Shown piece after piece: positions 8,041-63,772 of a stretch of 64,000 nucleotides of DNA. Both the position numbers and the translations under genes were made by a program. The notes below the pieces were generated by a model. The model ran no database searches. It was not told where the DNA came from and saw only the letters and a program-made list of their open reading frames with translations. Origin of the DNA: an uncultured Candidatus Saccharibacteria bacterium (GTDB lineage: Bacteria; Patescibacteriota; Minisyncoccia; Phycocordibacterales; PALSA-1337). Each line of letters starts with the position of its first letter. Within the stretch, counting starts at the first letter, position 1. The DNA is taken from positions 9,631-73,630 of the forward strand of contig CAYPPJ010000002.1 of the NCBI GenBank assembly GCA_964412585.1. Reading direction: 5' to 3'.

Positions 8041-8056
8041 GTTGCTGATAATCTAG

Positions 8057-15791: not shown

Positions 15792-15920
15792 ATAAGTTGT
15801 ATGTAGACGATAAGTTAACACGTCATGAGAGAAAAGTAAATAGTAACTAGTAAATAGAGGCTGAAACGTGTGATTTTCTCATTACTAGTTACTAATTACT
15901 ATATACTATATACTATTCTC

Positions 15921-19080: not shown

Positions 19081-19203
19081 AGAGAGTCGGAGCCGAGGAG
19101 GGTGTGCACTGTTCCTGTTATTACAATAAACGATGAGGTATGCGGATAACGTGGTAGCTACTATTTCCATAACAGGAACAGTGCACACCCTCCTCGGCTC
19201 TCT
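19081..19203. repeat. Family-1 palindromic element, copy A: 47-nt conserved core in the loop of a 36-bp inverted repeat
   Basis: Arms agagag(tcgga)gccgaggagggtgtgcactgttcctgttat / ataacaggaacagtgcacaccctcctcggctctct (30 bp perfect plus 6 bp with a 5-nt bulge). Loop 19122..19168 tacaataaacgatgaggtatgcggataacgtggtagctactatttcc matches copies B and C. Confidence 0.85.
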
Positions 19204-23173: not shown

Positions 23174-23207
23174 GTGGCCTTTCTAGTTACTAATTACTAA
23201 TTACTTT

Positions 23208-29331: not shown

Positions 29332-29745
29332 AACAGAAAATAACAGCCAGTGTCAATTGCTTTTTGGCTGTGGATAGCGCTAGGCTACAAATTAGAGAAC
29401 GTTCGAACTATTCGAACATTCAAGCTAGAGAATCTCTAAGCAATATCTCGATGCATGATGCATCAAGCGAGGTAGAGTCCCGAGGATAATGCCAGTACGC
29501 ATGACCGAAGTTATGCAACCAATATGTCCTTAGCACTATACCCAAACCTGGGAAGGCCATTGCTTAGAGGTTCACGAGCTCGAATAAGGAAAATCACCTG
29601 GTGGTGACTATAATTTCGTCGAGTAAACAACTAAAAAAGCGACTCTCGCGAGTTCGCATTATGATTGTTGTGTTGGTACACTGTACCTATAGGAATCCCC
29701 GAGGGATCTATAGGTTCCCCAATACACTATCACAATCGTATTAAA

Positions 29746-31382: not shown

Positions 31383-31913
31383 ATGTCCGGCCACAATAAA
31401 TACTCAAAAATAAAGCATATCAAGGCAAAGAATGACGCTCAGAAGAGTAAGAACTTCGGCAAGCTTGTTCGACTTATCACTGTAGAAGCAAAAAAAGCCA
31501 ATGGGCTCCTCACTTCCCCAGGATTGGCGGCTGCCATTGAAAAGGCTCGTGGAGAGAACATGCCAAATGACACTATTGATCGTGCGATCAAGAAAGCAAC
31601 GACCGACAACTCGGCCGCAATGGAATCTATTATCTATGAGTCCTATGGTCCAGGTGGTGTAGCCATCCTTGTTGAAGCACTCACCGATAATCGCAACAAG
31701 GCGGCACAGGAAATAAAACATATCCTTTCAAAAAACGGTTTTGAGCTTGCCTCCCCCGGCAGCGCCTCATGGGCATTCAAAAAAGATCACGCGACATGGA
31801 CTGCAACCACAACTATGCCCCTTGAAGATGCTGACATCGAACTTCTCACTAAGCTCGTTGAAGAACTTGAAGAAAACGACGAGGTCCAGTCCGTCTATAC
31901 GAATGCTGAATAG
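31383..31913 (+). CDS. yebC: YebC/PmpR-family DNA-binding regulator (compact 176-aa form)
   Basis: MSGHNKYSKIKHIKAKNDAQKSKNFGKL ... NMPNDTIDRAIKKA ... EVQSVYTNAE; conserved N- and C-termini but ~60 aa shorter than typical. Confidence 0.8.
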   Translation: MSGHNKYSKIKHIKAKNDAQKSKNFGKLVRLITVEAKKANGLLTSPGLAAAIEKARGENMPNDTIDRAIKKATTDNSAAMESIIYESYGPGGVAILVEALTDNRNKAAQEIKHILSKNGFELASPGSASWAFKKDHATWTATTTMPLEDADIELLTKLVEELEENDEVQSVYTNAE

Positions 31914-31929
31914 GTCTGTGTTGTTAGGA

Positions 31930-32045
31930 GAGTAAAATACGGCACACATGTTTTTGTACATTGCACAGGCCGCTCTCGGCCGAGCATAGGAACTTTTCAG
32001 CAGAAAAGTATCCGCGTACAAAAACATGTGTGCCGTATTTTACTC
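31930..32045. repeat. Family-2 palindromic element, copy 1: 56-nt structured core inside a perfect 30-bp inverted repeat
   Basis: Arms gagtaaaatacggcacacatgtttttgtac / gtacaaaaacatgtgtgccgtattttactc. Loop attgc-[ggccg ctct cggcc]-gagcataggaa-[cttttc agca gaaaag]-tatccgc; core matches 54090..54143. Confidence 0.85.
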
Positions 32046-32048
32046 AAC

Positions 32049-32327
32049 CTACTCCTCCCACCTATCCCCAAAAGGATTTATCTCCTCACCATCAAGACTG
32101 ATTTCTTCTGCTGTATCATCCTCTTCTACAGCACCTACCAATGGATCATCTTCAACTTTTTCATCAATAGCAACAGCCACTTCTGGCTCATCAATCTCTA
32201 TCGGCTTCTTTGCTTTTCCTGGTTTAACATCAAGATCAGTCTCGGGGTGGCCCGATTCTTCAGCGTGTTCTTCAACGACCGGATCTGGTTTTTTTGTTTT
32301 GACTCGCGATTTGGTTGCCGTTGCCAT
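32049..32327 (-). CDS. small acidic protein (92 aa), hypothetical
   Basis: D/E-rich ORF (MATATKSRVKTKKPDP...EEINPFGDRWEE); two overlapping plus-strand Ser-rich ORFs are less plausible. Confidence 0.35.
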   Translation of the reverse strand: MATATKSRVKTKKPDPVVEEHAEESGHPETDLDVKPGKAKKPIEIDEPEVAVAIDEKVEDDPLVGAVEEDDTAEEISLDGEEINPFGDRWEE

Positions 32328-32421
32328 ATACGTTATTGGTTAAACTAATTTCTATGCAGACAGTTGTAACAAAGATAGGCTTTTTGTGCAAGAAATAAGA
32401 GTTGTGGATAACCCTAGCCCA

Positions 32422-32901
32422 TCATCTCAAGCACGCACTATGTGTGAGCGCGACGGCGATTGCGTCATATTCATCGTCAATCACCTTTTTTGCAGGAAGG
32501 GACACAAGTAAATGAACCATTTTAATAACCCGCTCTTTGTCACTCCTCCCGTCACTCGTAACTGCCATCTTTATTTGCATAGGGGTGTACTCATGTATAG
32601 ATATGGCGCGCTTTATTGCTTCAACCAAGATAATACCGCGAACTTCAGCAACTCTCATGGCCGTCTTTTGATTTTTGGTAATAAACAAGGTTTCGATCGC
32701 AAGTGCACTCGGCTTGTATGTTTCAAGAATATTTCCAACTCGCACAGCAACTTGACCAAAACGTGTGTAAATATCGTCCCGCGCTGATGTCTGAAAACAT
32801 TCTGAATGAAGGACTATTTCCCTACCCTTTTTCGCTTTTTCGATGATGGCAATACCAAGGCGGTCATATCCAGGGTCTATACCAATGATTCGTGTGGTCA
32901 T
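32422..32901 (-). CDS. ruvC: crossover junction endodeoxyribonuclease RuvC
   Basis: MTTRIIGIDPGYDRLGIAIIE ... catalytic D/E/D/D pattern, 159 aa. Confidence 0.9.
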   Translation of the reverse strand: MTTRIIGIDPGYDRLGIAIIEKAKKGREIVLHSECFQTSARDDIYTRFGQVAVRVGNILETYKPSALAIETLFITKNQKTAMRVAEVRGIILVEAIKRAISIHEYTPMQIKMAVTSDGRSDKERVIKMVHLLVSLPAKKVIDDEYDAIAVALTHSACLR

Positions 32902-38476: not shown

Positions 38477-38571
38477 GATAGGTGTAAATAGGTAGAGTAA
38501 GTATATACCTGTTTATAAATTTGCAAACTTGTGGAGAGTAAAAAAATATGTTGATAAGGTGGGGATAGGGA

Positions 38572-38680
38572 GAACAAGGGGCGGAACAGGTACTTTTTCA
38601 GCTACAATAAAAGATGCGGTATGCGAATTGAGTGGTAGCTACTATTTCCGCTTCAAAAGTACCTGTTCCGCCCCTTGTTC
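38572..38680. repeat. Family-1 palindromic element, copy B (in the dnaA-rpmH divergent region)
   Basis: Arms gaacaaggggcggaacaggtactttttcagc / gcttcaaaagtacctgttccgccccttgttc (26 bp perfect plus imperfect tip). Loop 38603..38649 tacaataaaagatgcggtatgcgaattgagtggtagctactatttcc. Confidence 0.85.
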
Positions 38681-38735
38681 GTGCAAAGCACTATTACTTG
38701 ATAAGAACACACAAATATGTAATAGTGTGTGAACT

Positions 38736-38870
38736 ATGTCATTCACATACAAACCAAAAAAGCGTAAGCGAGCAAAGTCCCACGGATTTCGTGTGCGCAT
38801 GAAGACGACAGGAGGACGCAATGTTCTTGCGCGTCGTCGAGCAAAAGGTCGTAAACGAGTCGCGGTGTAG
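38736..38870 (+). CDS. rpmH: 50S ribosomal protein L34
   Basis: [44 protein letters not shown], 44 aa; below the ORF-track length cutoff but unmistakable; followed by rnpA. Confidence 0.93.
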
Positions 38871-39255: not shown

Positions 39256-40008
39256 ATGTATCACACAATTATCTTCCTCCCTCTCTATAACGGGCTTGTC
39301 GCTATTATGAATATTCTGCCGTGGGCTGATATTGGTGTGGCCGTGATCATATTTACAGCCATTGTAAAGCTTGTGCTGTTTCCTCTTTCAAAATCTTCAC
39401 TTTTGACTCAGGTCAAAATGAAGGAGATTGAACCTGAGGCAAACAAGATTCGTGCCCAGTATGCAAGCGACAAGCAAGCCCAGACACTCAAAGTCATGGA
39501 GCTCTACAAGACAAGAGGGGTAAAACCATTTTCAGGTGTCCTACTCCTCCTCATTCAGCTACCCATACTCCTTGCGCTTATCTCAGTTTTTTACAAAATT
39601 ATTCCCTCGATTCACCCAGAGTTCCTCTATAGTTTCATATCAATGCCAGATATAAGCACTAAGATACATTTTCTAGGCATCATTGACCTTGCACAGAAGA
39701 GTTTTATTTTGTCACTTATTACAGCGATTGTTCAATATTTCCAGCTCCACTACTCGATTGCGACTCGCGCCCCAGCAACTGACGCAGTAGTAGATACTTC
39801 GGCGGCTGGTTCAATGGCTATGACAGCCAACTCAATGACAAAGAATATGAAGTTTTTCCTCCCTATTCTTGCGTTTGCATCAACATACTGGCTTATCCCA
39901 GCACAATTTCCTCAAGCCGCCTCGATTATCGCCATCTATTGGACGATCAGTACCCTCTTTACCTTAGGTCAGGAGCTTTATATTAGGAAGAAGTACGTAA
40001 GTAAATAG
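39256..40008 (+). CDS. yidC: membrane protein insertase YidC (short Gram-positive/CPR type)
   Basis: KMKEIEPEANKIRAQYASDKQAQTLKVMELYKTRGVKPFSG...LLIQLPILLAL - YidC/Oxa1 core. Confidence 0.9.
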   Translation: MYHTIIFLPLYNGLVAIMNILPWADIGVAVIIFTAIVKLVLFPLSKSSLLTQVKMKEIEPEANKIRAQYASDKQAQTLKVMELYKTRGVKPFSGVLLLLIQLPILLALISVFYKIIPSIHPEFLYSFISMPDISTKIHFLGIIDLAQKSFILSLITAIVQYFQLHYSIATRAPATDAVVDTSAAGSMAMTANSMTKNMKFFLPILAFASTYWLIPAQFPQAASIIAIYWTISTLFTLGQELYIRKKYVSK

Positions 40009-40114
40009 CACCGCAGGGGAGCACACATCCTCGCTGCTCCAATAAACGATGCGGTATGCAAATTATGTGGTAGCTACTATTTACGCAGCGAGGATGTGTG
40101 CTCCCCTGCGGTGC
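40008..40114. repeat. Family-1 palindromic element, copy C (between yidC stop and end of the T4SS-like operon)
   Basis: Perfect 30-bp arms gcaccgcaggggagcacacatcctcgctgc / gcagcgaggatgtgtgctcccctgcggtgc. Loop 40038..40084 tccaataaacgatgcggtatgcaaattatgtggtagctactatttac. Confidence 0.85.
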
Positions 40115-40122
40115 GGACTCTA

Positions 40123-41442
40123 TTACTTTGCAGTGAGATCAAGAGACCAAAGAGAGAGGTCGTTCTTGTTCATGAATATTAGAAAACGATCCTTTTCATC
40201 AAGGCCAAGATTGAATGCGTCGATGATTCGGTCAGACGTGTCAACAATTGAGGATATTAGATGAACTTCCCCTGTCGTTGCACTAACCTGCCATATTTTA
40301 TCGACGAACGAAACGGTGCCTTTGTACCAATCATCTGGATAGGTCGCCGCGACTGGTTGGGCGGGAACGGCACAATAGATCATGTCTTTATAGAAGTTAC
40401 CCCAGACGCATTTGTCGGCAAGTGTGCGAATGACCGCGTCAGTTCCTTTCTTTTTATCAACATCAAATATACTTGAAACGATATTGTCCGCGCTTCCCGC
40501 CGCAGAAAGGAAGACCTTTTTCGCATCAACACTTACTTTTGTGCTCAAGCCAGGCAATGGACCAAGAATTTTCTTCCATACGCCTGTTTTTGCATTGACG
40601 AAGTAGAGAAAACCACGTTCGTCTGCCGCGCCCTTTGTTGTGAGAGCGATAGTGTTTTCTTCAGGCCACTCAGCATTTACTTGGGTCACTGGGGTGCTAA
40701 AGAGTGGTAGTGGGGCTGAACCGTCAAATTTGAGTATGTATCCCGCGCCAGCACCCTTTTCATTGATTAACACAAATACACGATCTTTTTTAGGGGATAC
40801 CGCAAAAGTCAGAATATTTTCTGGTAGGTTTTTTCCTTTGAGCTCATAAGGGGTCAGTGCAGAATCGGTTACTGATGTAGTTGTTGATACTTTTGGCATA
40901 ACTCGAGCCCGGAGCTCTGCCCAGATTCCTCCAACATTATTTTTTTCGGTTATACCAAAGGCCAAGAAAGACGAGAGGTTTTTGTTCCACACACTTTCAT
41001 ACATTTTAGGAACAACCGTATTCGAAATAGTTTTGATATCAAGAGTATTTCCGCGTGCCTCATAGACATTACCACGTCCCCTATCGATCCAACGGATAGC
41101 TGTTGTGGTGCTCGCAGCTTTTGCATTGACTGGACCTGTCGTACTTGCCCCATATCCCGCTACTGGCGTATTACTCAAAAGACGAAGGGTTGGAATTTTG
41201 AGCTGTGTACCAGAAGCTGTTGAACCGGTGCCATTTGTGCCTACACGAGGAGTACTTGTGCTCGTGCCTGACGATTGTGTTGGTGTACGACCAAATGGGG
41301 TGAAGCCATTTTGTTGTGTGTTTGATGGTTCGCCAAAGTCTGTTGTACCGATTCCCCGCACAAAGAAGTACCAGTATGCGCCACCAGCGATGATGAGTAG
41401 AATAATGAGGCCTATGATGTATTTTAGGGATTTTGAGGTCAT
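40123..41442 (-). CDS. membrane-anchored protein with S/T-rich linker and beta-propeller-like domain (last gene of T4SS-like operon)
   Basis: N-terminal TM IIGLIILLIIAGGAYWYFFV, then TPTQSSGTSTSTP... low complexity, then ~330-aa globular domain. Confidence 0.55.
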   Translation of the reverse strand: MTSKSLKYIIGLIILLIIAGGAYWYFFVRGIGTTDFGEPSNTQQNGFTPFGRTPTQSSGTSTSTPRVGTNGTGSTASGTQLKIPTLRLLSNTPVAGYGASTTGPVNAKAASTTTAIRWIDRGRGNVYEARGNTLDIKTISNTVVPKMYESVWNKNLSSFLAFGITEKNNVGGIWAELRARVMPKVSTTTSVTDSALTPYELKGKNLPENILTFAVSPKKDRVFVLINEKGAGAGYILKFDGSAPLPLFSTPVTQVNAEWPEENTIALTTKGAADERGFLYFVNAKTGVWKKILGPLPGLSTKVSVDAKKVFLSAAGSADNIVSSIFDVDKKKGTDAVIRTLADKCVWGNFYKDMIYCAVPAQPVAATYPDDWYKGTVSFVDKIWQVSATTGEVHLISSIVDTSDRIIDAFNLGLDEKDRFLIFMNKNDLSLWSLDLTAK

Positions 41443-42902
41443 GGTGTTCCGCCGAGGCCCGTTATAAGAGCACTGGTTTGTTTATCAAATAATTGCCTGA
41501 CTGAAGGGTCACTTATTGTTGGCAAAGCTGCAGTTCTCATTCTCTTTACATCAGCAATTGTTGTCTGGGCAGCCTCCTTGTAAAGTGTTAGTTCGCCCGC
41601 TTTCACGCCCGCATTTACAAATTGTGCTGCAGTGAAGCCGGCCGCACCGCCGAGTACACCCCCTGCCGATGTTCCTGCGATGGTGAAAAGGGTTGTGACA
41701 CTTGATTGGAAGGTATCCACCATAGCTTTTACCGATGGACTCTTTGACATACCGTACAGTATAGTGGAGTTTATCTTGGTTATAGCCTCCGCATATTTTT
41801 GATAATCAAGGACTTGTCCCGAAGCGACATCATTTCCAGATTTCTTCAACATTTCACTGTATTTTGTGCTCTCGTCAGCTATTTCTTTAAGGCACGTTGC
41901 TTGATCGTAATTATTTCCATAGTTCCACCACAAAAAACTACTTGATTCAGTGGTTATACCATAGCATTTTTGGATTATTGCGTTCATTATACCAACTCCC
42001 TGTTTAGTGGTGATTGATGCAGTCAGATCTTTTTGCTGGTTATTAATATCGGCAATACGTGCTGCAAGTGCCCGAGAAGCTGGGTCAAGTATAGATGACT
42101 GATCTATAAGTGATTGACATACGTTGGTTGTTCCCGCGGGGACAATTCGATCGTCGATACTATCCATACCGTTTGGATCCGGAACGAATGAATTGACTGA
42201 ATCAATCAATTGTTTACATAAGTCAGCTTTTTGTTGGTCGAGTTCGTCGGATTTTTTCTTTGCCTCAGCAACGGATTTTATAAGATCCATATTATCGCTT
42301 CGGAACTTGCTTGCATCGCGGTTTAGTTGGTCAAATATACCGCTCAATGCCTGAGGTTCATATTTTATATCAAGTGGTTTTACCAACGTCGTTGGTATAT
42401 CAACGAGCCTCGGGTCAACTGTTTTCAGAATAAGATATGAACACAGCACAAGTAATAGGCCGAGCAACGCATTTTGTATTTTTTTAATACCATCAGTTTT
42501 TTGATTATACGCATCGGAGCTCATATACTCGAAACCGCCCCAGACAATCATAAATACCGCCGCAACAGCGCAGAGTGCAATAAGAAGGTTGAATGCATAC
42601 TGTACATAATCTTTAAATTTGACTGAAGTGATTTGTGTCCCTGTTTGGCAATCTACGGCCGGTGTGGTGATTTTTCCGGTAGCATCCTTGACGGCCGGGC
42701 TTGGAACGCATGGCAATGGTTCTAGAAGCGTATAACTAGATTCAGTGTTACAGACGGGGTTGTTTTTTGCATTTGCCGCACTACAATCTGGCCCCGTGGT
42801 TTGTGCCGAAGTGATTGATGTTGAACCAAGTAAAATAACTGCCATTAAGGCTATAAGAGGGATGTTGCAAACTATTTTTCTAAGTATGGAGTATGTATTC
42901 AT
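41439..42902 (-). CDS. secreted/membrane protein with Cys-rich N-terminal region, two central TM helices and C-terminal coiled-coil (T4SS-like operon)
   Basis: Signal peptide, PDCSAANAKNNPVCNTE..., TM pair VQYAFNLLIALCAVAAVFMIVWGGF / IQNALLGLLLVLCSYLIL; 4-nt overlap with downstream gene. Confidence 0.55.
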   Translation of the reverse strand: MNTYSILRKIVCNIPLIALMAVILLGSTSITSAQTTGPDCSAANAKNNPVCNTESSYTLLEPLPCVPSPAVKDATGKITTPAVDCQTGTQITSVKFKDYVQYAFNLLIALCAVAAVFMIVWGGFEYMSSDAYNQKTDGIKKIQNALLGLLLVLCSYLILKTVDPRLVDIPTTLVKPLDIKYEPQALSGIFDQLNRDASKFRSDNMDLIKSVAEAKKKSDELDQQKADLCKQLIDSVNSFVPDPNGMDSIDDRIVPAGTTNVCQSLIDQSSILDPASRALAARIADINNQQKDLTASITTKQGVGIMNAIIQKCYGITTESSSFLWWNYGNNYDQATCLKEIADESTKYSEMLKKSGNDVASGQVLDYQKYAEAITKINSTILYGMSKSPSVKAMVDTFQSSVTTLFTIAGTSAGGVLGGAAGFTAAQFVNAGVKAGELTLYKEAAQTTIADVKRMRTAALPTISDPSVRQLFDKQTSALITGLGGTP

Positions 42903-42908
42903 AGGTAA

Positions 42909-43931
42909 TTAAAAATTCAACCCCTCCCCTTGTGTTGGTGTTCTATTAAATTGCACCGAAAAAGTGGCGTCTGTACCTTGAAGTATTTTCTCAATATTAC
43001 GAATACTCACTTGGACATTTGATGATCCTGTAGAGTCGTCTGGTGCACGTAACACAACTGACTCTTTGTTCGTCAAGCTTGACCTTCCTGAATTGTTAAG
43101 ACCCCACGACCAATCAAGATCACCAGTTCCCACGCGAGGCTTATTGAACCCAAAAGGAACGGCGAGGACACTCGTCTCTTTGTTTGAACCAATGCGCAAA
43201 GTTGAACCTATCGATCTGTTAAAGAGGGTTCCATATAAAGGATCCTCTATATAAAATTGTATCTCAGGACCTCGGGTTATTACTTGAGTATAGGCGCTTG
43301 CGGATGAATCATTATCTTTTGGCCACACAGTTACTGAAATATCATATGGTCGAGGCACTACATCACCCACAAGCACAATAGATTGTTTATTATATCCAGA
43401 CTGGTCTTCAAGGGCTCTCCCGTTCTTTTTCCATTGGTACACTAGTGCAGAAGGACTGTATTCGATACCAGCTGAATTGGCAATGTGAGGTACCGCAATG
43501 ATGGTTACTGAATTTTGATATACAGCTGGAATCTTCCCTTTAAAAAATGGAGGAGTATAGCCATCAGTTTCTAATAGCAGATCGACTGACCCAGAACCAA
43601 TAATGATTGAAGATTTAACAATTACCCCATCAACATTGGTGGCCGTTACTTCAATTGATATTTTCTTTCCTAAAGCAGGAGCCACAACGTCAAACGATGT
43701 CATTCCCGCACCTGACTTCGAAAGCTTTCCATCGACATACCAGGATACTTTGGAAGAATTAATATCTATTGTATAGCTCCGAGCGGTGACGGTGATAGTT
43801 TGTCCCGGAGAAGGGTTGTTACTGGATGGTGATAATTCTAGTCCACCAATGGAAGTTGGCACTTGAGCATGTGCAACAGCCGAAAACATAAAAGCGCACA
43901 GTAGAATTACCCCAAAGAAACGAGATTTCAT
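42909..43931 (-). CDS. secreted Ig-like/beta-repeat protein (T4SS-like operon)
   Basis: Start placed at MKSRFFGVILLCAFMFSAVAHAQ (signal peptide); the longer ORF to 44024 would overlap the upstream gene. Confidence 0.5.
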   Translation of the reverse strand: MKSRFFGVILLCAFMFSAVAHAQVPTSIGGLELSPSSNNPSPGQTITVTARSYTIDINSSKVSWYVDGKLSKSGAGMTSFDVVAPALGKKISIEVTATNVDGVIVKSSIIIGSGSVDLLLETDGYTPPFFKGKIPAVYQNSVTIIAVPHIANSAGIEYSPSALVYQWKKNGRALEDQSGYNKQSIVLVGDVVPRPYDISVTVWPKDNDSSASAYTQVITRGPEIQFYIEDPLYGTLFNRSIGSTLRIGSNKETSVLAVPFGFNKPRVGTGDLDWSWGLNNSGRSSLTNKESVVLRAPDDSTGSSNVQVSIRNIEKILQGTDATFSVQFNRTPTQGEGLNF

Positions 43932-43986
43932 TAGCTTTATTTTACCACGCCCTTTCAATACAGTCTGCAGTAATTTCGGGGATAAT

Positions 43987-44421
43987 TTATTTCGGTAACG
44001 AGCCGTTTGGTGGTCTGAAATCACCCTGGTGAATAGGGTTTTTCGGTGGAGCGTGTCTCATCCCCTCAACGTTCATTTTTGGGCCCATTTTTCCTTTAGT
44101 TAGTACATTGGCTGAAATCCCCGTTTTATCCTCAAGTCGCGTTGTGCCTACTATGATGAGCATTGCGACAAAAATGGTAGGCAATTCCTGCACACCTGGA
44201 ATAAGCTCCGCTATTGTGGAGATAATTTTTGTAACTCCCTGTTTTCCGCTGACAATTCCCATACCCTGTCTCCAAAAGTACACACTCGCAAGGACCCAAA
44301 ATATAGGACCGACAAAGTCGCCGACAAGAGGGATTAAGGTGAATAGGTCAGCAACAAGGGCCGCAACAACCAAAATGGCCCCTGCGGCGTTAGTAATTCG
44401 GTTCTTTTTGGATGTATCCAC
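43987..44421 (-). CDS. small polytopic membrane protein (T4SS-like operon)
   Basis: 3-4 TM helices (ILVVAALVADLFTLIPLVGDFVGPIFWVLASVYFW...). Confidence 0.5.
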   Translation of the reverse strand: MDTSKKNRITNAAGAILVVAALVADLFTLIPLVGDFVGPIFWVLASVYFWRQGMGIVSGKQGVTKIISTIAELIPGVQELPTIFVAMLIIVGTTRLEDKTGISANVLTKGKMGPKMNVEGMRHAPPKNPIHQGDFRPPNGSLPK

Positions 44422-44458
44422 GGTTCAATTATAACAAACTAACCTTTGGATTGTGACA

Positions 44459-46273
44459 CTACCCGGCCTGCTCCAGTTGCCTCTTTGCATCCTTGATAGC
44501 CAACACCTGAGCTGGATTTGTAGTAATAATCTGATCTTCTGTATATGATCCAACCACTTTAATAGCGACGTGTTTGAGCCCTACGAAGAAAATGCCCTCC
44601 CCCACATCAGACTCGAGGAGTAGGTATTTTTCCTCATCCGTGAGGTTGAATGTTTTTTGGATATGATCTATGACTGTTGGCGATTGTTTCAAAAGGATCT
44701 GGATGGATGAGTTTGTCACAATAGGCAATCCATACGGTGAATTCAAGAAGTCATCCACGTCTTGGGTGATGGTAGCAAGACCAAGGAAATATTTACGTCC
44801 GCGCTTTGCCAAACCAAAGAGGAAGGATGCGGTATCTTCGGATTTCATCATCCACCACGCCTCATCAATGACAAGGAGACGGCGCTTGAGATTTTTACGA
44901 ATAGCATTCCATATATAGTGTGTGACGATATACATTGCAACCGGCTTGAGCTCATCTTCCATGTCGCGGAGCGAAAATACCACGAACTTCTTGTTAATAT
45001 CGACATTCGAAGGTCTATTTATGAAGCCGGCCCACGTACCTTTTGTATACTTACTGAGGCGCTGTACGAGTGAGTCACCACCCTCCATGCCTGCGAGGAC
45101 GAGCTCAAAGTCTGAGAGTAATGGCGGTTCTACAGTACGAAAATCTGCCTCAGGCGTGATATCTTTGAGGGCATAGGTCTCACTGATCGCTCGGTCGATG
45201 ATCGCGTCCTCTTCTTGGGTGAGTCCGCCTAACATGATACGGAAGAGGCCGACCAGGTTGATGATGTTTGAACGCAACACATCGGCTGCAGATTCATCTT
45301 CACGAGGTATTGGTAGGTCAAATGGGTTGATATGATGTTCTGAGTTCAAGGAAATATTAAAGTACTTCCCTCCAGTTGCTTCGGCCATATACTCGTATTC
45401 TTTTTCTGGGTCGATAACTATGACATCTGTATCGAACATCAGGGTACGGAGAATTTCGAGCTTGGTTGCGTATGATTTACCAGCGCCGGCCGTTGCGAAG
45501 GTGACAGAGTTGTAATTTTCTAGGGAAAATCGATCAAAGAGCACCAATGAAGAGTTGTGGCGGTTGATACCGTATAGAATGCCTTTGTCTGAGGTGAGGT
45601 CAAATGAGACAAATGGAAAGAGTGACGATAGTGGCGATGAATTGAGCTTCGAGTGTACTGTCAATTGGTCATCTGCAATCGGAATAACTGATTTGAAGCC
45701 TTGTTCTTGCTGGAATAGGGCAGGTTTGACATACACTAGCTTTGATTCGAGGATAGATTTGATCTCGGACTCAAGCTTGTCGAGCTCACCTTCAGAGTCG
45801 GCGAAAAGTGTAATGTAGACACCCACATCAAATAGGTGTTCCTGTGCCTGCATGAGCTGATCACGGAGCTGCTCGAGATCTTGGTATGCAGTATCCAATG
45901 CCGGATCACGCACCAATCCCTTCTCTTCCCTACGCAAAATCTGGCTCTGAACTTCAGCAACCTTCTTTTGGAAATGGCGGAGAATCTTTGCCGTATCAAC
46001 CGGATGGATGAATATTGAGATATTAAAAATCTTATCGAGGTTAATGATCGGTGCAAACCAGCTTTCGTCCAAGAAACGTGGATATGAAATGACAAAAAGC
46101 GTACGGCCTACCTTTTCACCAAGATTGAGGTCTTTTGGGCTTATTTTGAGTGCGGATGGAGAAATGACATCTTTGAGCTCCAACACCCCAGCCTGATAGA
46201 TTTCCTCGGGCAGGATGGAGACGATAGGTGATGAGTCGTCTTTCTTTCCAAATAAATTACCAAAAAATGACAT
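44459..46273 (-). CDS. VirB4/TrbE/CagE-family T4SS ATPase, main (ATPase) part
   Basis: Walker A TFATAGAGKSYATK, Walker B LLVIDEAWWMM, AAA_10/CagE_TrbE_VirB architecture; 604 aa. Confidence 0.85.
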   Translation of the reverse strand: MSFFGNLFGKKDDSSPIVSILPEEIYQAGVLELKDVISPSALKISPKDLNLGEKVGRTLFVISYPRFLDESWFAPIINLDKIFNISIFIHPVDTAKILRHFQKKVAEVQSQILRREEKGLVRDPALDTAYQDLEQLRDQLMQAQEHLFDVGVYITLFADSEGELDKLESEIKSILESKLVYVKPALFQQEQGFKSVIPIADDQLTVHSKLNSSPLSSLFPFVSFDLTSDKGILYGINRHNSSLVLFDRFSLENYNSVTFATAGAGKSYATKLEILRTLMFDTDVIVIDPEKEYEYMAEATGGKYFNISLNSEHHINPFDLPIPREDESAADVLRSNIINLVGLFRIMLGGLTQEEDAIIDRAISETYALKDITPEADFRTVEPPLLSDFELVLAGMEGGDSLVQRLSKYTKGTWAGFINRPSNVDINKKFVVFSLRDMEDELKPVAMYIVTHYIWNAIRKNLKRRLLVIDEAWWMMKSEDTASFLFGLAKRGRKYFLGLATITQDVDDFLNSPYGLPIVTNSSIQILLKQSPTVIDHIQKTFNLTDEEKYLLLESDVGEGIFFVGLKHVAIKVVGSYTEDQIITTNPAQVLAIKDAKRQLEQAG

Positions 46274-46277
46274 ACGT

Positions 46278-46922
46278 TTAGGTTATCTGTATAGGCTTCT
46301 CTGTTTCTCCTGGGTTGAAGAGTTTGTAGAACAATTCTACCACCTCTTCTGTCCCAAGTTCTGCGGCTCGAATACCACAGCGTACCAGCCCCTGTTCGAC
46401 CACAGCGACACGTTGTTCAAGTTGGCTGCGGTATTCCTGAAATTTTGCATCAGCACTTGCCGTCTGTTCTTTTGCCGTGCCCTTGCTGGGAAATATATTC
46501 GAAATCGGATTTTTGCTTGCGGTCATGAGTGGTGGGTCATAGGGTATGACGACAAAGAAGCTCTTTGACATGATGTTGGTGTTTTCAACAAAGGTTTTGA
46601 TGAACTCTATATATTCACGTACCTGGATTTTCATGAGTTCCGTAGCCTGTTCTTTGTAGCGGTCTTCGAGGAGAGCGATGTAGGGTCTAATATCCAGCTT
46701 TTTTGATTGAACGAATATCTGGATAGAAAAATCGAGCGAATTAACGAAGTTCTGGAACTGCATCAGAATAGAACTTTGCTCATCTTGGGATTTCAAGGCA
46801 AAGTTGAGAGATGATACCAAGACGATTGCGCGCATACCGCCATTCTTGAGGATAATGACACCGTCGCGTATCTCCTGTATCGGAATAAAATCTTGGGTTG
46901 TTTTTGATGATACGGCAGCCAT
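46278..46922 (-). CDS. VirB4-family N-terminal domain encoded as a separate ORF
   Basis: IPIQEIRDGVIILKNGGMRAIVLVSSLNFALKSQDEQSSI... matches the first ~200 aa of VirB4/TrbE proteins; stops 4 nt before the ATG of the 604-aa ORF (taa-acgt-atg). Confidence 0.6.
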   Translation of the reverse strand: MAAVSSKTTQDFIPIQEIRDGVIILKNGGMRAIVLVSSLNFALKSQDEQSSILMQFQNFVNSLDFSIQIFVQSKKLDIRPYIALLEDRYKEQATELMKIQVREYIEFIKTFVENTNIMSKSFFVVIPYDPPLMTASKNPISNIFPSKGTAKEQTASADAKFQEYRSQLEQRVAVVEQGLVRCGIRAAELGTEEVVELFYKLFNPGETEKPIQIT

Positions 46923-47356
46923 TATCGTTGATTTTTATTTGAATACATACTTTCTTTGATATCCAGGCTCCAGCTTAGGTCTTTCAATTTGCTGTCAGAA
47001 ATTTTCGGAACCATGATAGAGGCATAGTTTTTAACATCTGTAGCCTCCGCCTCGGTCGTTTGAGGCGTTGTTCTATCCGCCTTTCTCCATATATAGAGCT
47101 TACTGCCGAGATAGTATTTAAATGCAGCTTCGACAACAGTTATAAAAGGTTTGTTATTTATCTTATAGAAAGCGAGTGCGCCTGATATGGCCATAATCAA
47201 GATGATCGGTACAATGGCCAGGGTTACGTTTCCAAGAAATACATAGACTACGAAAGACAGTCCTCCCCCACCAGCCAAGTAGATAAACTGCTTGAGCGTG
47301 AGTGGCCCGAAGATCTTATCCTCGACTTCTATAAATTGGGGAACTTGAAATCGCAT
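46922..47356 (-). CDS. PrgI/VirB3-like small 2-TM T4SS protein
   Basis: MRFQVPQFIEVEDKIFGPLTLKQFIYL + two TM helices; sits directly upstream of VirB4 as in Gram-positive T4SS loci. Confidence 0.55.
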   Translation of the reverse strand: MRFQVPQFIEVEDKIFGPLTLKQFIYLAGGGGLSFVVYVFLGNVTLAIVPIILIMAISGALAFYKINNKPFITVVEAAFKYYLGSKLYIWRKADRTTPQTTEAEATDVKNYASIMVPKISDSKLKDLSWSLDIKESMYSNKNQR

Positions 47357-47395
47357 TGCTCATATTATAGCGTCAAGCGAGGATATGGGAAAGCG

Positions 47396-48088
47396 TTATT
47401 TAATAGGCTCTCGGTATGGATCAGGTCCTCCAGATGATTTTGGTGTAGGAACCGTGATTTTTGGCTTTTGAACCGCAGTCGGCGTTGCCACTACATTTTG
47501 CATAGACTGCCCTGCGGGTTTACTGAGTAGGAGGTCTACAAGTGGCTCTGTATGGCTTTCCTCCTTTTTGGTAGATTTGGCCGCACTAGTCTCACTAAAT
47601 GGACCCGCTTCCTCCTCTCCTACAGGTAAGTTTTGTGGTGGTTGACTGGTGTGAGCTGTGCTTGAGGGTGGATTTTCAAGTCCGGCAAGGATGTTTCCCC
47701 TGTCAGCAGGAGTGACCATCTTGTTTTCTGATTCTGGTTCAGGTTTTTCAATGGTGATGCCACCCATACGCTCTAGATTTTCGCTTGTCTCTGGAGCCGG
47801 GCTGGTTTGTTTTTGCAAATTTGTTTTTAGTACACTAAATACATTTGAGTTAATTTCCACCACAACTTTATCCGCGAGTTCCTGGTCGATAGAGAGTCGG
47901 GTCATTATGTGTCTAGTAAAGTCTGCAGAGGTACTGACACCTTTCAACACATCGCATACTTCAGCATACAGTTCTCCCATTTGGTCGATATTCAACCCTA
48001 ACTTTTTTGAGGTAATTTCCAGGGTATCATAAAACTGCGGTGATGATATGTAGCTTTTTATTTGTTCCAATTGGTTATTTTTGTCCAT
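47396..48088 (-). CDS. hypothetical cytoplasmic protein with P/S/E-rich C-terminus (T4SS-like operon)
   Basis: No TM; ORF in operon context only. Confidence 0.45.
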   Translation of the reverse strand: MDKNNQLEQIKSYISSPQFYDTLEITSKKLGLNIDQMGELYAEVCDVLKGVSTSADFTRHIMTRLSIDQELADKVVVEINSNVFSVLKTNLQKQTSPAPETSENLERMGGITIEKPEPESENKMVTPADRGNILAGLENPPSSTAHTSQPPQNLPVGEEEAGPFSETSAAKSTKKEESHTEPLVDLLLSKPAGQSMQNVVATPTAVQKPKITVPTPKSSGGPDPYREPIK

Positions 48089-48099
48089 AATTGTTCATG

Positions 48100-50139
48100 C
48101 TAATTCCACCAGTGGTGATTTTCAGGCTTATTCATAAATGACAATGCCTTATGAGTTGAACCTCCGCTATGTCTTGTATGGTTTGTGTCCCAAAAGGCAA
48201 TCGCCTCGCCTATCGCTTTCTTTTTAGTATTATCAATACCCTCGTCGTTCATTTCTTTGAGTTGTGAAGGCTTCAAGAAGGCAATAACTGCTGGGCGTAC
48301 CACATCATCAAGACCCATCAGTTCTTTACCACTCATACCGTTTACGATTGCCTCGACAGTTTTCGAGCCACCAACACCTACCGGGTTCTTCTCCACCGCT
48401 TCGTGCAAGGCCTCCTCTCTCGTCTTGGAGAGTGTGCGTTTGTCGTCATCACTCATGTTACCCATCATAAACTTAAGCGTCTCGACATCGTCATTTTTTG
48501 CAGCGGTGACCAGTGCCGCCTTACGTGCGTCAACAATCTCTGCCTGATCATCGGCTGAAATATCATCAGATTTCGCAATCGCCTCAAAGTCTGATTTTTT
48601 GAGATGTTTAACAATATTTGGATCTTTCAAAACTTTTGAACCTAGTGCAAGACGTTCCTTCTCGTTCATCTTACTCATAGCATCTTTGTATTCTTGTGAT
48701 GTAGTACTCTTGGACGACATCAGGCTCTGTAAATGAGAGCCACGGTCAAGTTCGCGTTGCTTCTTTGTTACTTCTTTTTGAGTCTTTGCTATATCTTCGT
48801 ATGACCTGTCACTACCAAATTTAGCTTTCGCAGCTGCTCCTGTTGTTACTGCCCTCAAGTCACGACCAAACAGGCTGTTGCCAAATCGACTTTTGTCCAG
48901 TTTTTTATCCAAATAATTACCCGCATACCCAATCGTTCCTCTACCCGCTATACCCCCCGTCCACCCACCAACTTTTTTCCAAATGGCATCTGCTCCGACC
49001 TTATCTGCCCACTTTGGCATCATTGCCCCCATACTCATTGCACCTAATAGAGGTAGATTGAGCATAACGATCACGAGGACTGCGTTCACGGCAAGAATCA
49101 TGAGATCACTCAAGAAATTCCCACTTGGGCTGAGTGATCCAACGTATCCATCTTTGAATATTGATGTAGAGGTGAGTACTGAGAGCGCAAAATACATCAA
49201 GAGCAAATACACTGGCATGAATATGAGCTGTTCTTTGAGGTATTTTCTCCACAAACCTGCATATTGATCAATTTCTGGCACAACATAGGACGCAAAGAAA
49301 ATAGGTGAAAACGCCAGCAAGAATATCAAAATAACAAAACGAACAATAAAGGCCAGTGACGCCAAGAATAAGCTCAGTGCCGTAGTGACCATGATAATAA
49401 TAGAGGTGATGCCAGTGAGGATAATCTTGAGTGAGGTGCTCACAAAGCCATTTCCAGACTGTATTACTTTCTGGCCATTTGCACTCAAAGTGCCATCAGG
49501 GTTGTATAAACGGGTCACACCAAGAGATTGCATGAATATGGTCGAAATGCCCCCGTCGGCATTGCTTGTGTTTATAAATTTCTTCATATCCAACGATCCG
49601 TCCAGTGTTTGTTGAGGTGCGATTGCGCTATACAATTGCAAGGAGACGATATTGGACACATCGATTGCCAATCCAGTCAGGAAAAAACTGAAGTTGATGA
49701 GAATGCCTGCAACGACAATATTCTTGATGCGATCGCCAAACTTTGGGCTCTCAAATCCGGTGATGAGCTGTATCGCAGAGTATAAGAGTCCGAAAATAAT
49801 GAACATACCTGAGATATCTCTGATCGCCTTCCATACGGTATAAATAGCATCAGTTGATGCTACGAACTCCTTGATATGCATTGTCAGATTGATCGAGAAG
49901 TTCATGAGCGAACCAGCCAGATAGACGAGCCAGCTTGCCATGGTCTGGAAAGAGTAGAAGAGGTTAGCCAAACTATCGGCAATAAGTGTTGTCAGATTGA
50001 AACTGAACATATTTCCCTCTGCATGGGCGATCGGAGTCAGTGCGATTGTTACGGCCAACACACATACAACGACAAACCCAGCACGTGTGAAGTGTCGAGA
50101 GGTTAAAATATGTATTGATCTAATAATGCGTGACAACAT
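48100..50139 (-). CDS. VirB6/TrbL-like polytopic membrane protein with C-terminal coiled-coil/hydrophilic domain
   Basis: Signal/TM at N-terminus, ~7 further TM helices over the first 400 aa, then 280-aa charged domain; size and topology match VirB6/TrbL/PrgH-type channel proteins. Confidence 0.6.
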   Translation of the reverse strand: MLSRIIRSIHILTSRHFTRAGFVVVCVLAVTIALTPIAHAEGNMFSFNLTTLIADSLANLFYSFQTMASWLVYLAGSLMNFSINLTMHIKEFVASTDAIYTVWKAIRDISGMFIIFGLLYSAIQLITGFESPKFGDRIKNIVVAGILINFSFFLTGLAIDVSNIVSLQLYSAIAPQQTLDGSLDMKKFINTSNADGGISTIFMQSLGVTRLYNPDGTLSANGQKVIQSGNGFVSTSLKIILTGITSIIIMVTTALSLFLASLAFIVRFVILIFLLAFSPIFFASYVVPEIDQYAGLWRKYLKEQLIFMPVYLLLMYFALSVLTSTSIFKDGYVGSLSPSGNFLSDLMILAVNAVLVIVMLNLPLLGAMSMGAMMPKWADKVGADAIWKKVGGWTGGIAGRGTIGYAGNYLDKKLDKSRFGNSLFGRDLRAVTTGAAAKAKFGSDRSYEDIAKTQKEVTKKQRELDRGSHLQSLMSSKSTTSQEYKDAMSKMNEKERLALGSKVLKDPNIVKHLKKSDFEAIAKSDDISADDQAEIVDARKAALVTAAKNDDVETLKFMMGNMSDDDKRTLSKTREEALHEAVEKNPVGVGGSKTVEAIVNGMSGKELMGLDDVVRPAVIAFLKPSQLKEMNDEGIDNTKKKAIGEAIAFWDTNHTRHSGGSTHKALSFMNKPENHHWWN

Positions 50140-50145
50140 GTGTTT

Positions 50146-51951
50146 TTAGTGGAAACCAACAAGTAGTGGATTGACAAATGTGTGGTATGGGAAACCGCCG
50201 AATGTCAGATTATATGGCAACTCGTTACAAATCCTTTGGAATGTTCCAGCGTCCTTGTCGAGAATGGTCATAAGTGAATCGACACTCTTTTTGCTCTGCG
50301 TTGCATCTTCTGAGCCGTCGACACCTGCCTGTGCACCCTGGAGGGTTGAACTAATTGAAGCATCAACACGATTGAAACCAGCGCTTATATCATTGTCAGT
50401 TACACCTCGAATCTGAGCATTGGTTGATGAGTTGGTTGTGTTTTTGTAACTATCAATTTTATTTTGTAGCACCATCTTCTTTTCAGTGGTGGAGGATATC
50501 ATCAAGTCAATGCTTTGTGCCAAAACCAAGTCGACACCGCCAATCATCCTCTGTCCGTATTCACGTTGTGATGTGGGGAAATTTGCTGTTGAAATTTTTG
50601 TACTAAAGCATGCTCGGATAGAGACGTATTTTGTTCTTTCGGTACTGAGCAAGCTCAACGTTTGGTCATATTGGTTTATAGTATCTTGACCAAGATTAAT
50701 CACTGAATTTGAGCCACTGAGGGATCTGTTTTTGGTCGATTGAATATCGAAACTGTTTTGGTTGTACGATTCATCACTAAGCTGAGTGAGATAGGCCTTG
50801 GAGTTTCCACCAAGTCCTGATCCGTGACCACTGAGTGCCGCCAGTCCTTGAGTAAACATTTGATTGACGAGCGCGCCGGTAATAGCGTCGATGCTATCGC
50901 TTATTGTTTTAACAAGGACAAGCTTGTCAGATGGAATGTTGAGTTGTTTTTGGAGCGATCCAGCAATCATTGATCCTGGGGTTTGAACAGAACAATCCTG
51001 ATAAGTGGTCTTACCATTTTTTGTTGTTTTCTTGATGCCCGTTGCCTTGCCAAAGTCATCAAACCCAGATGAACCAAATCCATTTTTCTCAAGATCTCTG
51101 ATATCAGATGCATTTAGACCATACTGTGAACCTGCTATCTCGACAGTGCTACGTCCATCGGCGGGTACATCATATCCCCCACCCGAAGGATCAATAGTAA
51201 ATTGATTGGTGACATCTGTACATTTATTCCATGACAAGAAGCCGGCACCACGATTCAAATCATTGTTAACGGACGCTTTTCTCTCGGCTATCTTTTGTTT
51301 CAAATCTGAATCAGCAAGAAGATATGCTCCGACTGGATTGTTTTGGGCTTGCGTAGTGTATGCAAGAAATCCTCCCCAGCCTCCCTGCGAAAAGTCGCCA
51401 TTCATGAAATTTCCCAGCGTTGCTCCGTCGGCCGAGCCTGTCAATGTAATCCCGCTATTACGCCCAATATTCTGCACTGAGTTTCGTGTATTATTTATGA
51501 CGGTACTCAACGTACACGAGTACCGTTTGTTCATTGATGAAGCTTGGTTGAGCGCTATGTTTAGACGCAAATCAAAACTAAATGGCGAACATAACTGTGA
51601 CAGTGCACCAGTTTTCTCGAGGAGCTCCCCGGTAATTTGATCACCAACATCCATGAAAAAGCCCTCTGGGTTTGTGATAAATGCCGGACTCCCTTCAAAC
51701 CCCGTATTAATCCAATTGACCACGCTTGCGGTCATGCGCTGGATAAGCTGGTTGGCGATCATCACGGCGAGCTTGTTTCCAACGAACTCTTTCCAGTTAT
51801 CCATGATGCAGTACACGTCGAATAGTCCGCAGGCGGTCGGTACCGGTAGTGCTTGCGCTTTCTTTGCTGGAATTGCAGCAAATGGCGAGGCGATAACACA
51901 GAGCATGAGTATTCCGATCAACAATTTTTTTATGTACGAATTCGTTTTCAT
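50146..51951 (-). CDS. secreted 601-aa G/S/N/T-rich protein (T4SS-like operon)
   Basis: Signal peptide LLIGILMLCVIASPFAAIPA; no recognisable catalytic motif. Confidence 0.5.
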   Translation of the reverse strand: MKTNSYIKKLLIGILMLCVIASPFAAIPAKKAQALPVPTACGLFDVYCIMDNWKEFVGNKLAVMIANQLIQRMTASVVNWINTGFEGSPAFITNPEGFFMDVGDQITGELLEKTGALSQLCSPFSFDLRLNIALNQASSMNKRYSCTLSTVINNTRNSVQNIGRNSGITLTGSADGATLGNFMNGDFSQGGWGGFLAYTTQAQNNPVGAYLLADSDLKQKIAERKASVNNDLNRGAGFLSWNKCTDVTNQFTIDPSGGGYDVPADGRSTVEIAGSQYGLNASDIRDLEKNGFGSSGFDDFGKATGIKKTTKNGKTTYQDCSVQTPGSMIAGSLQKQLNIPSDKLVLVKTISDSIDAITGALVNQMFTQGLAALSGHGSGLGGNSKAYLTQLSDESYNQNSFDIQSTKNRSLSGSNSVINLGQDTINQYDQTLSLLSTERTKYVSIRACFSTKISTANFPTSQREYGQRMIGGVDLVLAQSIDLMISSTTEKKMVLQNKIDSYKNTTNSSTNAQIRGVTDNDISAGFNRVDASISSTLQGAQAGVDGSEDATQSKKSVDSLMTILDKDAGTFQRICNELPYNLTFGGFPYHTFVNPLLVGFH

Positions 51952-51952
51952 A

Positions 51953-54065: not shown

Positions 54066-54167
54066 GTGAGTTGAGTATGGGTGAAGATACATTGCGGAGC
54101 GCGACGGCGCGAGCATAGCAATTTTTCAGCAGAAAAATATGCGCGTATCTGAACCCATGCTCGACGA
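54066..54167. repeat. Family-2 palindromic element, copy 2 (between pcrA end and rsmA start)
   Basis: Imperfect 18-24-bp arms gagtatgggtgaagatac / gtatctgaacccatgctc around core attgcggagcgcgacggcgcgagcatagcaatttttcagcagaaaaatatgcgc. Confidence 0.8.
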
Positions 54168-63599: not shown

Positions 63600-63772
63600 A
63601 GTTCGTGTTCGCCCCAAGATTTCAGCTTTGAATGAATCGCGCACTGGCGCATGCCTTGCGGCGCTTCAAATCTGCCTATCCGGGGGCGAGTTAGTTAATA
63701 AGGTGCTTCGAGCACACGTAATGTAGCACATCGTCAAATGCTTTGACAATTGGCGTGTTTGTTCTTGTCTCG

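Follow-up and report, generated by a model that had tools for sequence, protein, structure and literature searches.

A long perfect hairpin between yidC and a T4SS-like operon: a probable copy of a dispersed mobile palindrome in Patescibacteria

Introduction

On contig CAYPPJ010000002.1 (assembly GCA_964412585.1, an uncultured Candidatus Saccharibacteria bacterium), a stretch of 64,000 nucleotides (positions 9,631 to 73,630; hereafter, the window) carries a perfect 30-bp hairpin, named copy C, between two converging transcription units. These units are the gene yidC and a 12.7-kb operon of minus-strand genes (40123-52831) resembling those of type IV secretion systems (T4SS), the products of which include a TraG/VirB4-like P-loop ATPase, PrgI, and a weak, sub-threshold match to T4SS_pilin. 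A preliminary description of this DNA regarded copy C as the only candidate terminator for both units and grouped it with two further hairpins, copies A and B, as Family 1. The locus raises the question of whether copy C was built for this junction or belongs to an element that settles at many places.

Here, we conclude that copy C probably belongs to a dispersed and non-autonomous DNA palindrome of the insertion type, the arms of which are homogenised at the DNA level, and not a purpose-built terminator. The element resembles repetitive extragenic palindromic (REP) doublets forming hairpins (REPINs) and MITEs (miniature transposable elements with inverted repeats). Its class occurs only in a small number of closely related Patescibacteria of a 'Candidatus Taylorbacteria'/Paceibacteria-like lineage. 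Genomes of Patescibacteria (Candidate Phyla Radiation, CPR) are small and tightly packed, and a literature search found no report of such repeat elements in this group.

Results

Structure of copy C and of Family 1

The two arms of copy C are exact reverse complements (30 of 30 pairs) around a 47-nt loop, so that the whole hairpin comprises 107 bases, and the arm pattern matched the window only at its own two arms (two matches; chance expectation, 0). The left arm begins with the final base of the yidC stop codon (TAG), and 8 nt (40115-40122) lie between the right arm and the converging stop codon, which is the distance of 9 nt in the counting of the preliminary description; the geometry reported there was confirmed. 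Folded as RNA with short flanks, copy C reached -79.2 kcal/mol on the plus strand (z = -10.6, 0 of 200 shuffles as good) and -77.8 kcal/mol on the minus strand, and the hairpin alone folded as single-stranded DNA reached -45.1 kcal/mol (z = -13.4).

The grouping of copies A, B, and C holds, because all three have a common loop core, CAATAAAnGATGnGGTATGC-N7-GTGGTAGCTACTATTT, on the plus strand, and the 16-mer GTGGTAGCTACTATTT occurs exactly three times in the window. Two further members were found in the metagenome-assembled genome (MAG) nzgw447 (loci L011 and L030). The five copies were aligned without gaps. In this alignment, 30 of 30 stem pairs change on both sides, 98% of the stem cells are standard pairs with a single G·U in 150 cells, and a shift of the register by 1-3 columns as a control lowered the pairing to 29-50%. 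All invariant columns lie in the loop (CAATAAA.G, GTGGTAGCTACTATTT, and part of GGTATGC, of which only G47, T50, G51, and C52), whereas the outer stem columns are all variable and the outer stem is weakly conserved, roughly as G-A-R-C-M..AGGRGG. That the apical module is conserved among paralogues and in two genomes implies that it is recognised in a sequence-specific manner. RNAalifold added small AAU/AUU and GGUAUGC/GCUACU helices within the loop, in columns without informative variation. An ATAG stands 0-11 nt before the hairpin in A, B, C, and the L030 copy, at inconsistent spacing, and is missing from the L011 copy.

Short reading frames run through the loops (MRYADN in A, MRYAN-TGA in B, and MRYANY in C). 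The preliminary description had dismissed the MRYAN/MRYAD match as incidental, and rightly so: in copy B, codon 5 is followed by an in-frame TGA, and the L030 orthologue lacks an ATG at this position, which rules out a loop-encoded peptide.

Scans with the Family-1 core pattern, which required exact matches and missed the diverged L030 orthologue, gave one true match in the genome collection (L011 in nzgw447), three chance matches within coding sequence in the metagenome collection, and no match in viral contigs. A Family-1 covariance model detected no further copies in 307 kb of retrieved loci. No exact match to 22-mers from the C and A stems was present in viral contigs, and none to the whole element in phage or plasmid collections. 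The idea that the stems are spacer-like guides was rejected in view of these missing viral, phage, and plasmid matches; the C stem also occurs nowhere else in the window.

An orthologous pair with mirrored substitutions

The closest relative found is the MAG nzgw447 (GCA_023269245.1), in which the 439-aa protein encoded next to copy C is 85% identical and the region has 76-82% nucleotide identity to the window. Its locus L030 has, at junctions identical to those of copy C, a Family-1 hairpin with the same stem (30 bp) and loop (47 nt) lengths. The arms read GCACCGCAGGGGAGCACACATCCTCGCTGC in the window and GTAGCGCAGCGAAGTACACGTCCTCACGGC in L030. Of the 30 positions, 8 differ, by transition in 5 cases and by transversion in 3, and each difference has its counterpart on the opposite arm, so that both stems are perfect. 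The similarity of these orthologous stems is clear (z = 6.8), whereas paralogous stems are essentially unrelated (z <= 2.4). No G·U pair was found in the ~420 bp of perfect stems of the 13 long elements described below.

Copy C was unchanged and in the same orientation in 10 of 10 contigs from different samples that encode an identical YidC (Hamming-distance scan; contigs from Joint Genome Institute (JGI) metagenomes 33000453xx and Logan assemblies of SRR237024xx). The same was true of copy B in all nine such contigs that reach its site.

A class of long perfect hairpins with several loop families

A census of perfect Watson-Crick inverted repeats gave a bimodal distribution. Members of a short, terminator-like group have stems of 14-17 bp including A/T tracts, loops of 3-13 nt, and A-/T-run flanks, whereas in a long group the stems are perfect over 22-42 bp, the loops measure 36-63 nt, and the whole elements ~105-130 bp. 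Of perfect repeats of 14 bp or more, the window has 6, compared with 0.05 in shuffled sequence. The long group consists of 13 elements: four in the window, two in nzgw447, two each in the relatives' loci L015 and L017, and three in L019; none was found in ~130 kb of other relatives. Within the carrier lineage, the density is about one per 10-16 kb of sampled sequence. The stem boundaries are sharp, and the 30-nt flanks on either side have no complementarity beyond chance.

Besides Family 1, the loops fall into Family 2, a Family-3-like group, and three singletons (Table 1). The Family-2 loop (54-56 nt) forms two sub-hairpins, GGCCG/CGGCC and GGAACTTTTC/GAAAAGTATCC, the pairing of which is kept despite sequence changes, and the hairpin at 31930-32045 is enclosed by outer imperfect arms (31910-32065). 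The possibility was considered that a stem may stay in place while its loop is replaced by another. Apart from the orthologous pair, a few cross-family stem pairs beat nearly all shuffles (GCACACAT; GAGT.TGGTGAA.ATA), and the longest loop word common to different families is a 9-mer, about the estimated chance level. At the Rfam 15 thresholds, only tRNAs were detected in the window and five loci, and E-value scans with copy C and the Family-2 copy returned only sub-threshold, generic microRNA (miRNA)-precursor-like matches.

Table 1. Positions of the features discussed (in the window, unless a locus of a relative is named)
Feature	Positions	Strand	Description
yidC	39256-40008	+	250 aa, PF02096; upstream converging gene
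Copy C, left arm	40008-40037		30 nt; begins within the yidC stop codon, at its last base
Copy C, loop (apical module)	40038-40084	+	47 nt
Loop, conserved 5' block	40040-40048		CAATAAACG
Loop, GGTATGC	40053-40059
Loop, variable part	40060-40066		7 nt
Loop, conserved 3' block	40067-40082		GTGGTAGCTACTATTT
Copy C, right arm	40085-40114		30 nt; separated by 8 nt from the stop codon of the 439-aa gene
Converging gene	40123-41442	-	439 aa, no Pfam match; last of the T4SS-like operon
Copy A	19090-19200	+	32-bp perfect stem, 47-nt loop; divergent amidase / mutM/fpg spacer
Amidase gene	17813-19066	-	adjoins copy A
mutM/fpg	19240-20178	+	adjoins copy A
Copy B	38572-38680	+	26-bp perfect stem, then 2 mismatches and 3 pairs beside the 47-nt core
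dnaA	37130-38476	-	adjoins copy B
rpmH	38736-38870	+	divergent from dnaA; other flank of copy B
Family-1 copies of nzgw447	L011 3058-3174; L030 6139-6245
Family-2 copy	31930-32045		30-bp perfect stem, 56-nt structured loop; convergent YebC / 92-aa open reading frame (ORF) junction
Family-2 copy, degenerate	~54068-54165		18-bp stem with 3 mismatches; between uvrD/pcrA and rsmA
Family-2 copy of a relative	L019 8360-8489
Family-3-like copies	L015 9794-9909; L017 4336-4455; L017 8496-8603

Several neighbouring observations concern other repeats. In L011 of nzgw447, an inverted repeat at 4680-4816, which may represent a larger or a decaying form of the long class, encloses a centre of 87-105 nt between 25-nt arms of 88% complementarity (16 perfect). 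Short hairpins with an A-run, a stem, and a T-run occur in the window at 8001-8043 (AACAAAAAACCGCCC...GGGCGGTTTTTTGTT) and 15397-15427 (AGAAAAATCACCGA AAA TCGGTGATTTTTCT); from their sequence, they look like bidirectional intrinsic terminators, in which case the organism would also use ordinary terminators. A block containing ruvC and the small acidic 92-aa ORF (32049-32327, minus strand; block 32049-32901) is inverted relative to most relatives (compared with L017, L019, L021, L024, and L026) and has the same orientation in L015 as in the window. One of the two junctions of this inverted block is occupied by the Family-2 hairpin.

Gain or loss at orthologous sites

DnaA homologues delineated a richly sampled clade with 76-92% identity to the window protein, the members of which are labelled Patescibacteria, Paceibacterota, or 'Candidatus Taylorbacteria'. 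The region comprising the T4SS-like operon, yidC-rnpA-rpmH, and dnaA-dnaN is syntenic in every relative locus compared. The places occupied in the window by copies B and C (sites B and C) differ in state from genome to genome (Table 2). Site B keeps its conserved flanks, namely the DnaA-box-like side (GTTGATAAGGTGGGGATAG) and the rpmH promoter side.

Table 2. State of sites C and B in the window and in relatives
Locus	Site C (yidC / T4SS-like operon)	Site B (dnaA-rpmH)
Window	Family-1 copy C	Family-1 copy B
L030 (nzgw447)	orthologous Family-1 copy	beyond contig end
L017	36-bp stem, Family-3 loop	no hairpin
L019	38-bp stem, Family-2 loop	32-bp stem, yet another loop
L015	short terminator-like hairpin (AAAAAGGGGGCCACAGCCCCTTTTT), 46-nt spacer, A-/T-run flanks	38-bp stem, Family-3-like loop
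L032	33-nt spacer without long hairpin	no hairpin
L021, L024, L026	7-25 nt gap	no hairpin
L031	gene overlap	no hairpin
L034	gene overlap	beyond contig end

The place of copy A (site A) provided a filled and an empty state for direct comparison. In L035, the amidase is 94% identical at the amino acid level, the flanks have ~86% nucleotide identity, and the amidase-mutM spacer is 55 nt. The empty site reads ...GCAGAGA|CTTGCAAAAG..., whereas the window reads ...GCAGAGA|GTCG, hairpin A, TCT|CTTGCAAAAG...; the difference of 118 bp (19086-19203) has unambiguous breakpoints and no target-site duplication. This clean filled/empty pair shows that the family behaves as an insertion, and the comparison of the three sites shows that the elements are separate units, which are gained or lost where an intergenic position tolerates them.

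Two other origins of the elements were considered and rejected. Stems that grew outward from local flanks do not agree with flanks that are not complementary or with empty sites that hold neither arm; L019, in which one hairpin arm overlaps the last four codons of yidC, is ambiguous in this respect. Insertion into the loop of an older terminator had been suggested by the likeness (GGGGAGC/GCTCCCC) of the C stem to the L015 terminator stem, which the other copies do not support.

Beside site A, mutM (19240-20178) has only 68% nucleotide identity to its counterpart at L035 543-1493, against 86% for the adjacent amidase and murE-like genes, which suggests local replacement or accelerated divergence of mutM.

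Transcriptional context of the copies

A promoter scan predicted a dnaA promoter at 38527-38500 (minus strand) and an rpmH promoter at 38698-38726 (plus strand). Copy B lies upstream of both predicted promoters, and the promoter-bearing blocks on either side of it are conserved in relatives; its spacer is thus probably not transcribed. The L011 copy lies between co-directional genes, a 365-aa gene (PilM-like by eye) and the next gene. Among the other families, the hairpin at L017 4336-4455 lies inside the T4SS-like operon, and one at L019 15875-16005 is also between co-directional genes.

The dnaA-rpmH spacer (38477-38735) has strongly conserved blocks in the window and from L015 to L032, AAGTATATACCTGTTTATAAATTTGCAAACTTGTGGAG and the DnaA-box-like TGTTGATAAGGTGGGGATAG, and probably represents the dnaA promoter and the origin. 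The cumulative GC skew has a minimum at ~36-40 kb with no clear rise afterwards.

Other features of the window

A single ORF of 2416 aa occupies 8057-15307 on the minus strand. AT-rich direct and inverted repeats based on TTACTAGTTACTAATTACTA were observed at 15835-15912 near a tRNA gene and rpsT, and at 23180-23210 near polA. A gene-free gap of ~330 nt upstream of ruvB (29332-29664) is kept in relatives (L015 18276-18622) and gave no Rfam match at threshold.

Discussion

A palindrome probably maintained at the DNA level

We interpret copy C as an element that acts as DNA, because wobble pairs are nearly absent, 13 elements are perfectly paired over 22-42 bp, well beyond the demands of folding stability, the boundaries are sharp, and the location is indifferent to transcription. 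The following course of events would account for the data. A recent ancestor shared with nzgw447 would have received the element at the point where the 3' ends of yidC and the last T4SS-like gene meet. The arms of the element would then have been kept perfect at the DNA level by intramolecular template switching or arm-to-arm conversion. Four papers on quasipalindromes (PMC7202029, PMC8794818, PMC8604942, PMC13100816) describe template switching as homogenising and extending inverted-repeat arms and as producing compensatory changes in single events. Selection pair by pair is less likely, because one mismatch in a stem of 30-42 bp would cost little stability. A trans-acting protein may recognise the apical module on the extruded or single-stranded hairpin, in the way that REP-associated tyrosine transposases (RAYT) or IS200-type enzymes act with REP hairpins. 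At site C, finally, both transcripts would meet an RNA hairpin of about -79 kcal/mol, and a block to 3' exonucleases and partial termination would probably follow as by-products of a tolerated location, with the stronger termination expected on the T4SS operon strand, which has a U-rich tail.

Several points weigh against this interpretation. A search of Pfam domains among 40 window ORFs (~15.5-64 kb) revealed no transposase, HUH, or reverse transcriptase (RT) domain that would indicate a mobilising gene. None of the five known Family-1 copies is near-identical to another, and recent bursts of replication have thus left no direct trace. At site A, insertion, as opposed to precise deletion, is the presumed direction of the change. 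The loop centre of copy C (GATGCGGTATGCAAATTATG) is nearer to those of A, B, and L011 than to that of its positional orthologue (GTGAAAGGTTGCGGAGAAGG), which needs an extra assumption, either loop conversion/homogenisation or relaxed constraint in L030. The perfect pairing could instead result from strong selection on a double-stranded RNA or on a DNA hairpin. Lastly, the lack of transcription of A and B is a prediction from matches to consensus promoters, made by eye for A, where the scan found no promoter.

The pair formed by copy C and its L030 orthologue is an unusually clean natural case, in which a 30-bp helix has changed at 8 positions without a mismatch or wobble intermediate. It bears on the question of whether the 'compensatory' substitutions of long hairpins are selected singly or arise from single template-switch events. 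In these compact genomes, the elements repeatedly fill the few permissive intergenic sites, namely the spacer beside dnaA, convergent gene ends, and gaps within operons. They may be mistaken for terminators, small-RNA genes, or miRNA-like hairpins, and can break metagenome assemblies.

Alternative explanations

The explanation closest to the preliminary description is a dedicated bidirectional terminator or insulator, with Family 1 as a set of related terminators. Part of that claim stands: copy C is the sole structure in the 114-nt spacer, both transcripts enter it, the RNA hairpin is very stable on both strands, and the 3' tail on the minus strand (UAUUUACUU, 5 U in the first 8 nt) resembles a terminator tail. 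Moreover, copy C, the hairpin at 31930-32045, and several of the relatives' hairpins lie at convergent junctions, and L015 has a terminator-like hairpin at the same junction. These features do not account for the element itself, however. The plus-strand tail (GGACUCUAUU) is weak and has no clear U-tract, a terminator scan made no call at 40008-40114, and the U-rich tail of the minus strand is not conserved in the L030 orthologue. Copies A and B and three of the relatives' copies lie between divergent promoters and others lie within operons, and a terminator role cannot explain copies A or B. Five relatives (L021, L024, L026, L031, and L034) have no such spacer at this junction, which needs no such element, since the converging genes of relatives abut, overlap, or lack a long hairpin. 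Other convergent pairs of the window (22448/22458 and 57526/57535) likewise overlap or abut with no hairpin between them; convergent junctions in this genome are often without a terminator. Neither 30-42 perfect pairs nor a conserved 47-nt loop is needed for termination. We therefore regard a dedicated terminator as unlikely. Because five relatives have no spacer, other convergent pairs have no hairpin, and the U-tail is not conserved, any effect of copy C on transcription is better seen as a side effect, although it is plausible, judging from the predicted fold and tails, that some termination of the T4SS-like operon transcript occurs at copy C and that both 3' ends are protected against exonucleases there. 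A gene for polynucleotide phosphorylase (PNPase) is present in the window (61443-63644).

A structured non-coding RNA, such as a small RNA or an element of an untranslated region with a helix cut by RNase III and an apical module bound to protein or RNA, would fit the very strong covariation, the apical sequence conserved across two genomes, and the maintained sub-hairpins of the Family-2 loops; every Family-1 copy could also share a plus-strand transcript with at least one neighbouring gene. We nevertheless consider it quite improbable, for the stems are unlike RNA helices, with a single G·U among 150 cells and not one over ~420 bp of perfect pairing, and folding could not plausibly demand an unbroken helix of 30-42 bp. 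Copy B, and probably A, lies upstream of the flanking promoters, presence varies at orthologous sites where unrelated loop families replace one another, and the Rfam matches were no better than generic miRNA-precursor-like. A cis-acting DNA site with a host function, that is, a cruciform or protein-binding palindrome for replication initiation or supercoiling control, would be in keeping with the location of copy B beside the DnaA-box-like TGTTGATAAGG near the cumulative GC skew minimum, with long hairpins in the dnaA-rpmH spacer of three lineages, and with divergent transcription, which would favour cruciform extrusion. Since this spacer is empty in L017, L031, L032, L021, L024, and L026, its loops differ among lineages, and other copies lie at unrelated places including gene 3' ends, such a site appears highly unlikely. 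Still further from the evidence is an invertible switch, in which the inverted repeats would flank a flipping segment. Family-2 and Family-3-like loops do occur in both orientations relative to the flanking genes across genomes, and PMC8604942 reports that template switching can invert the spacer of an inverted repeat. The assembled contigs, however, show a single orientation of copy C (10 of 10) and of copy B (9 of 9 reaching the site), and no promoter is evident in the loop. A spacer of 36-63 bp is too short for recombinase synapsis, which also counts against a switch. Taken together, we regard this explanation as extremely improbable.

Comparison with known systems

Having weighed these alternatives, we return to the dispersed mobile palindrome and compare it with systems described elsewhere. 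Intrinsic terminators have in common with copy C a stable hairpin at a gene 3' end and, on the minus strand, a partly U-rich tail, but their stems of ~5-15 bp and loops of 3-8 nt contrast with the 30-bp stem and 47-nt loop of copy C, and members of the present class also lie between divergent genes (A and B) or between co-directional genes (the L011 copy and L017 4336-4455). Unlike retrons, which have an msr/msd arrangement beside a reverse transcriptase gene, the copies have no adjacent reverse transcriptase, their neighbours being yidC, dnaA, rpmH, the amidase gene, mutM, and the T4SS-like genes. The attC sites of integrons recombine as folded single-stranded hairpins, the structure of which is conserved while the sequence varies, and are similar in this respect. 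However, attC sites have R''/R' cores (RYYYAAC ... GTTRRRY), extrahelical bases, a variable centre, and a place in an integrase-linked cassette array, whereas the stems here are without bulges, their outer ends depart from the core consensus, and the copies are solitary among housekeeping genes.

Palindrome-associated transposable elements (PATE) derived from IS200/IS605 insert without duplication 3' of a fixed tetra- or pentanucleotide. No duplication was seen at site A, and an ATAG precedes four of the five Family-1 hairpins at inconsistent spacing. A single hairpin spans the whole element, in contrast to the separate left and right subterminal hairpins of PATE. Quasipalindrome template switching would explain arms that are complementary beyond structural need and two-arm changes, including G-C to C-G, without G·T intermediates. 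It is a mutational process and not an element, however, and leaves the dispersal of the loops and the clean insertion boundaries unexplained.

As RNA, the hairpins of Correia-type MITEs can end or stabilise transcripts, or serve as sites of RNase III cleavage. Like MITEs, of which the Correia elements of Neisseria are a bacterial example (review, PMC10969869), the present elements are short palindromic intergenic insertions, often at gene 3' ends, with presence/absence polymorphism (sites A, B, and C). MITEs differ in that their terminal inverted repeats are conserved among copies, whereas the arms here differ as described for the paralogous stems, and in that they are flanked by a target-site duplication, which is missing from the filled/empty pair at site A. 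The defining MITE features therefore fail, as the terminal repeats are not conserved and no target site is duplicated.

REPINs, which are REP doublets that form hairpins and are mobilised by RAYT transposases (PMC3116915, PMC3337134), are dispersed hairpins of ~100 nt in which compensatory changes are common (PMC3116915). The present elements resemble them as single ~100-nt hairpins that are extragenic, dispersed, non-coding, and non-autonomous, with compensatory stem changes, vertical persistence in a lineage, and a hairpin predicted in single-stranded DNA or mRNA. They differ in that the outer REP 16-mers of REPINs are invariant and the middle is variable, whereas here the 47-nt apical module is invariant and the outer stem is weakly conserved. 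In addition, the stems are perfect over 22-42 bp, the five copies are highly diverged and do not form a near-identical cloud, several unrelated loop families occur on one architecture, and no RAYT (Y1 HUH transposase) was detected by Pfam among the 40 window ORFs.

These differences leave some room for a type of mobile DNA not described before. In such an element, identity would reside in the apical module of 36-63 nt, with several modules on one chassis, and insertion would proceed without target duplication. The stem would be regenerated from one arm by fold-back/template-switch synthesis at each move and in place, and would be free to drift yet remain palindromic, while some enzyme would read the module on single-stranded or cruciform DNA and so mobilise the element. 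This proposal is possible but rather doubtful at present. The best classification of copy C and its relatives is a REPIN/MITE-like mobile palindrome of unusual architecture in a Patescibacteria lineage.

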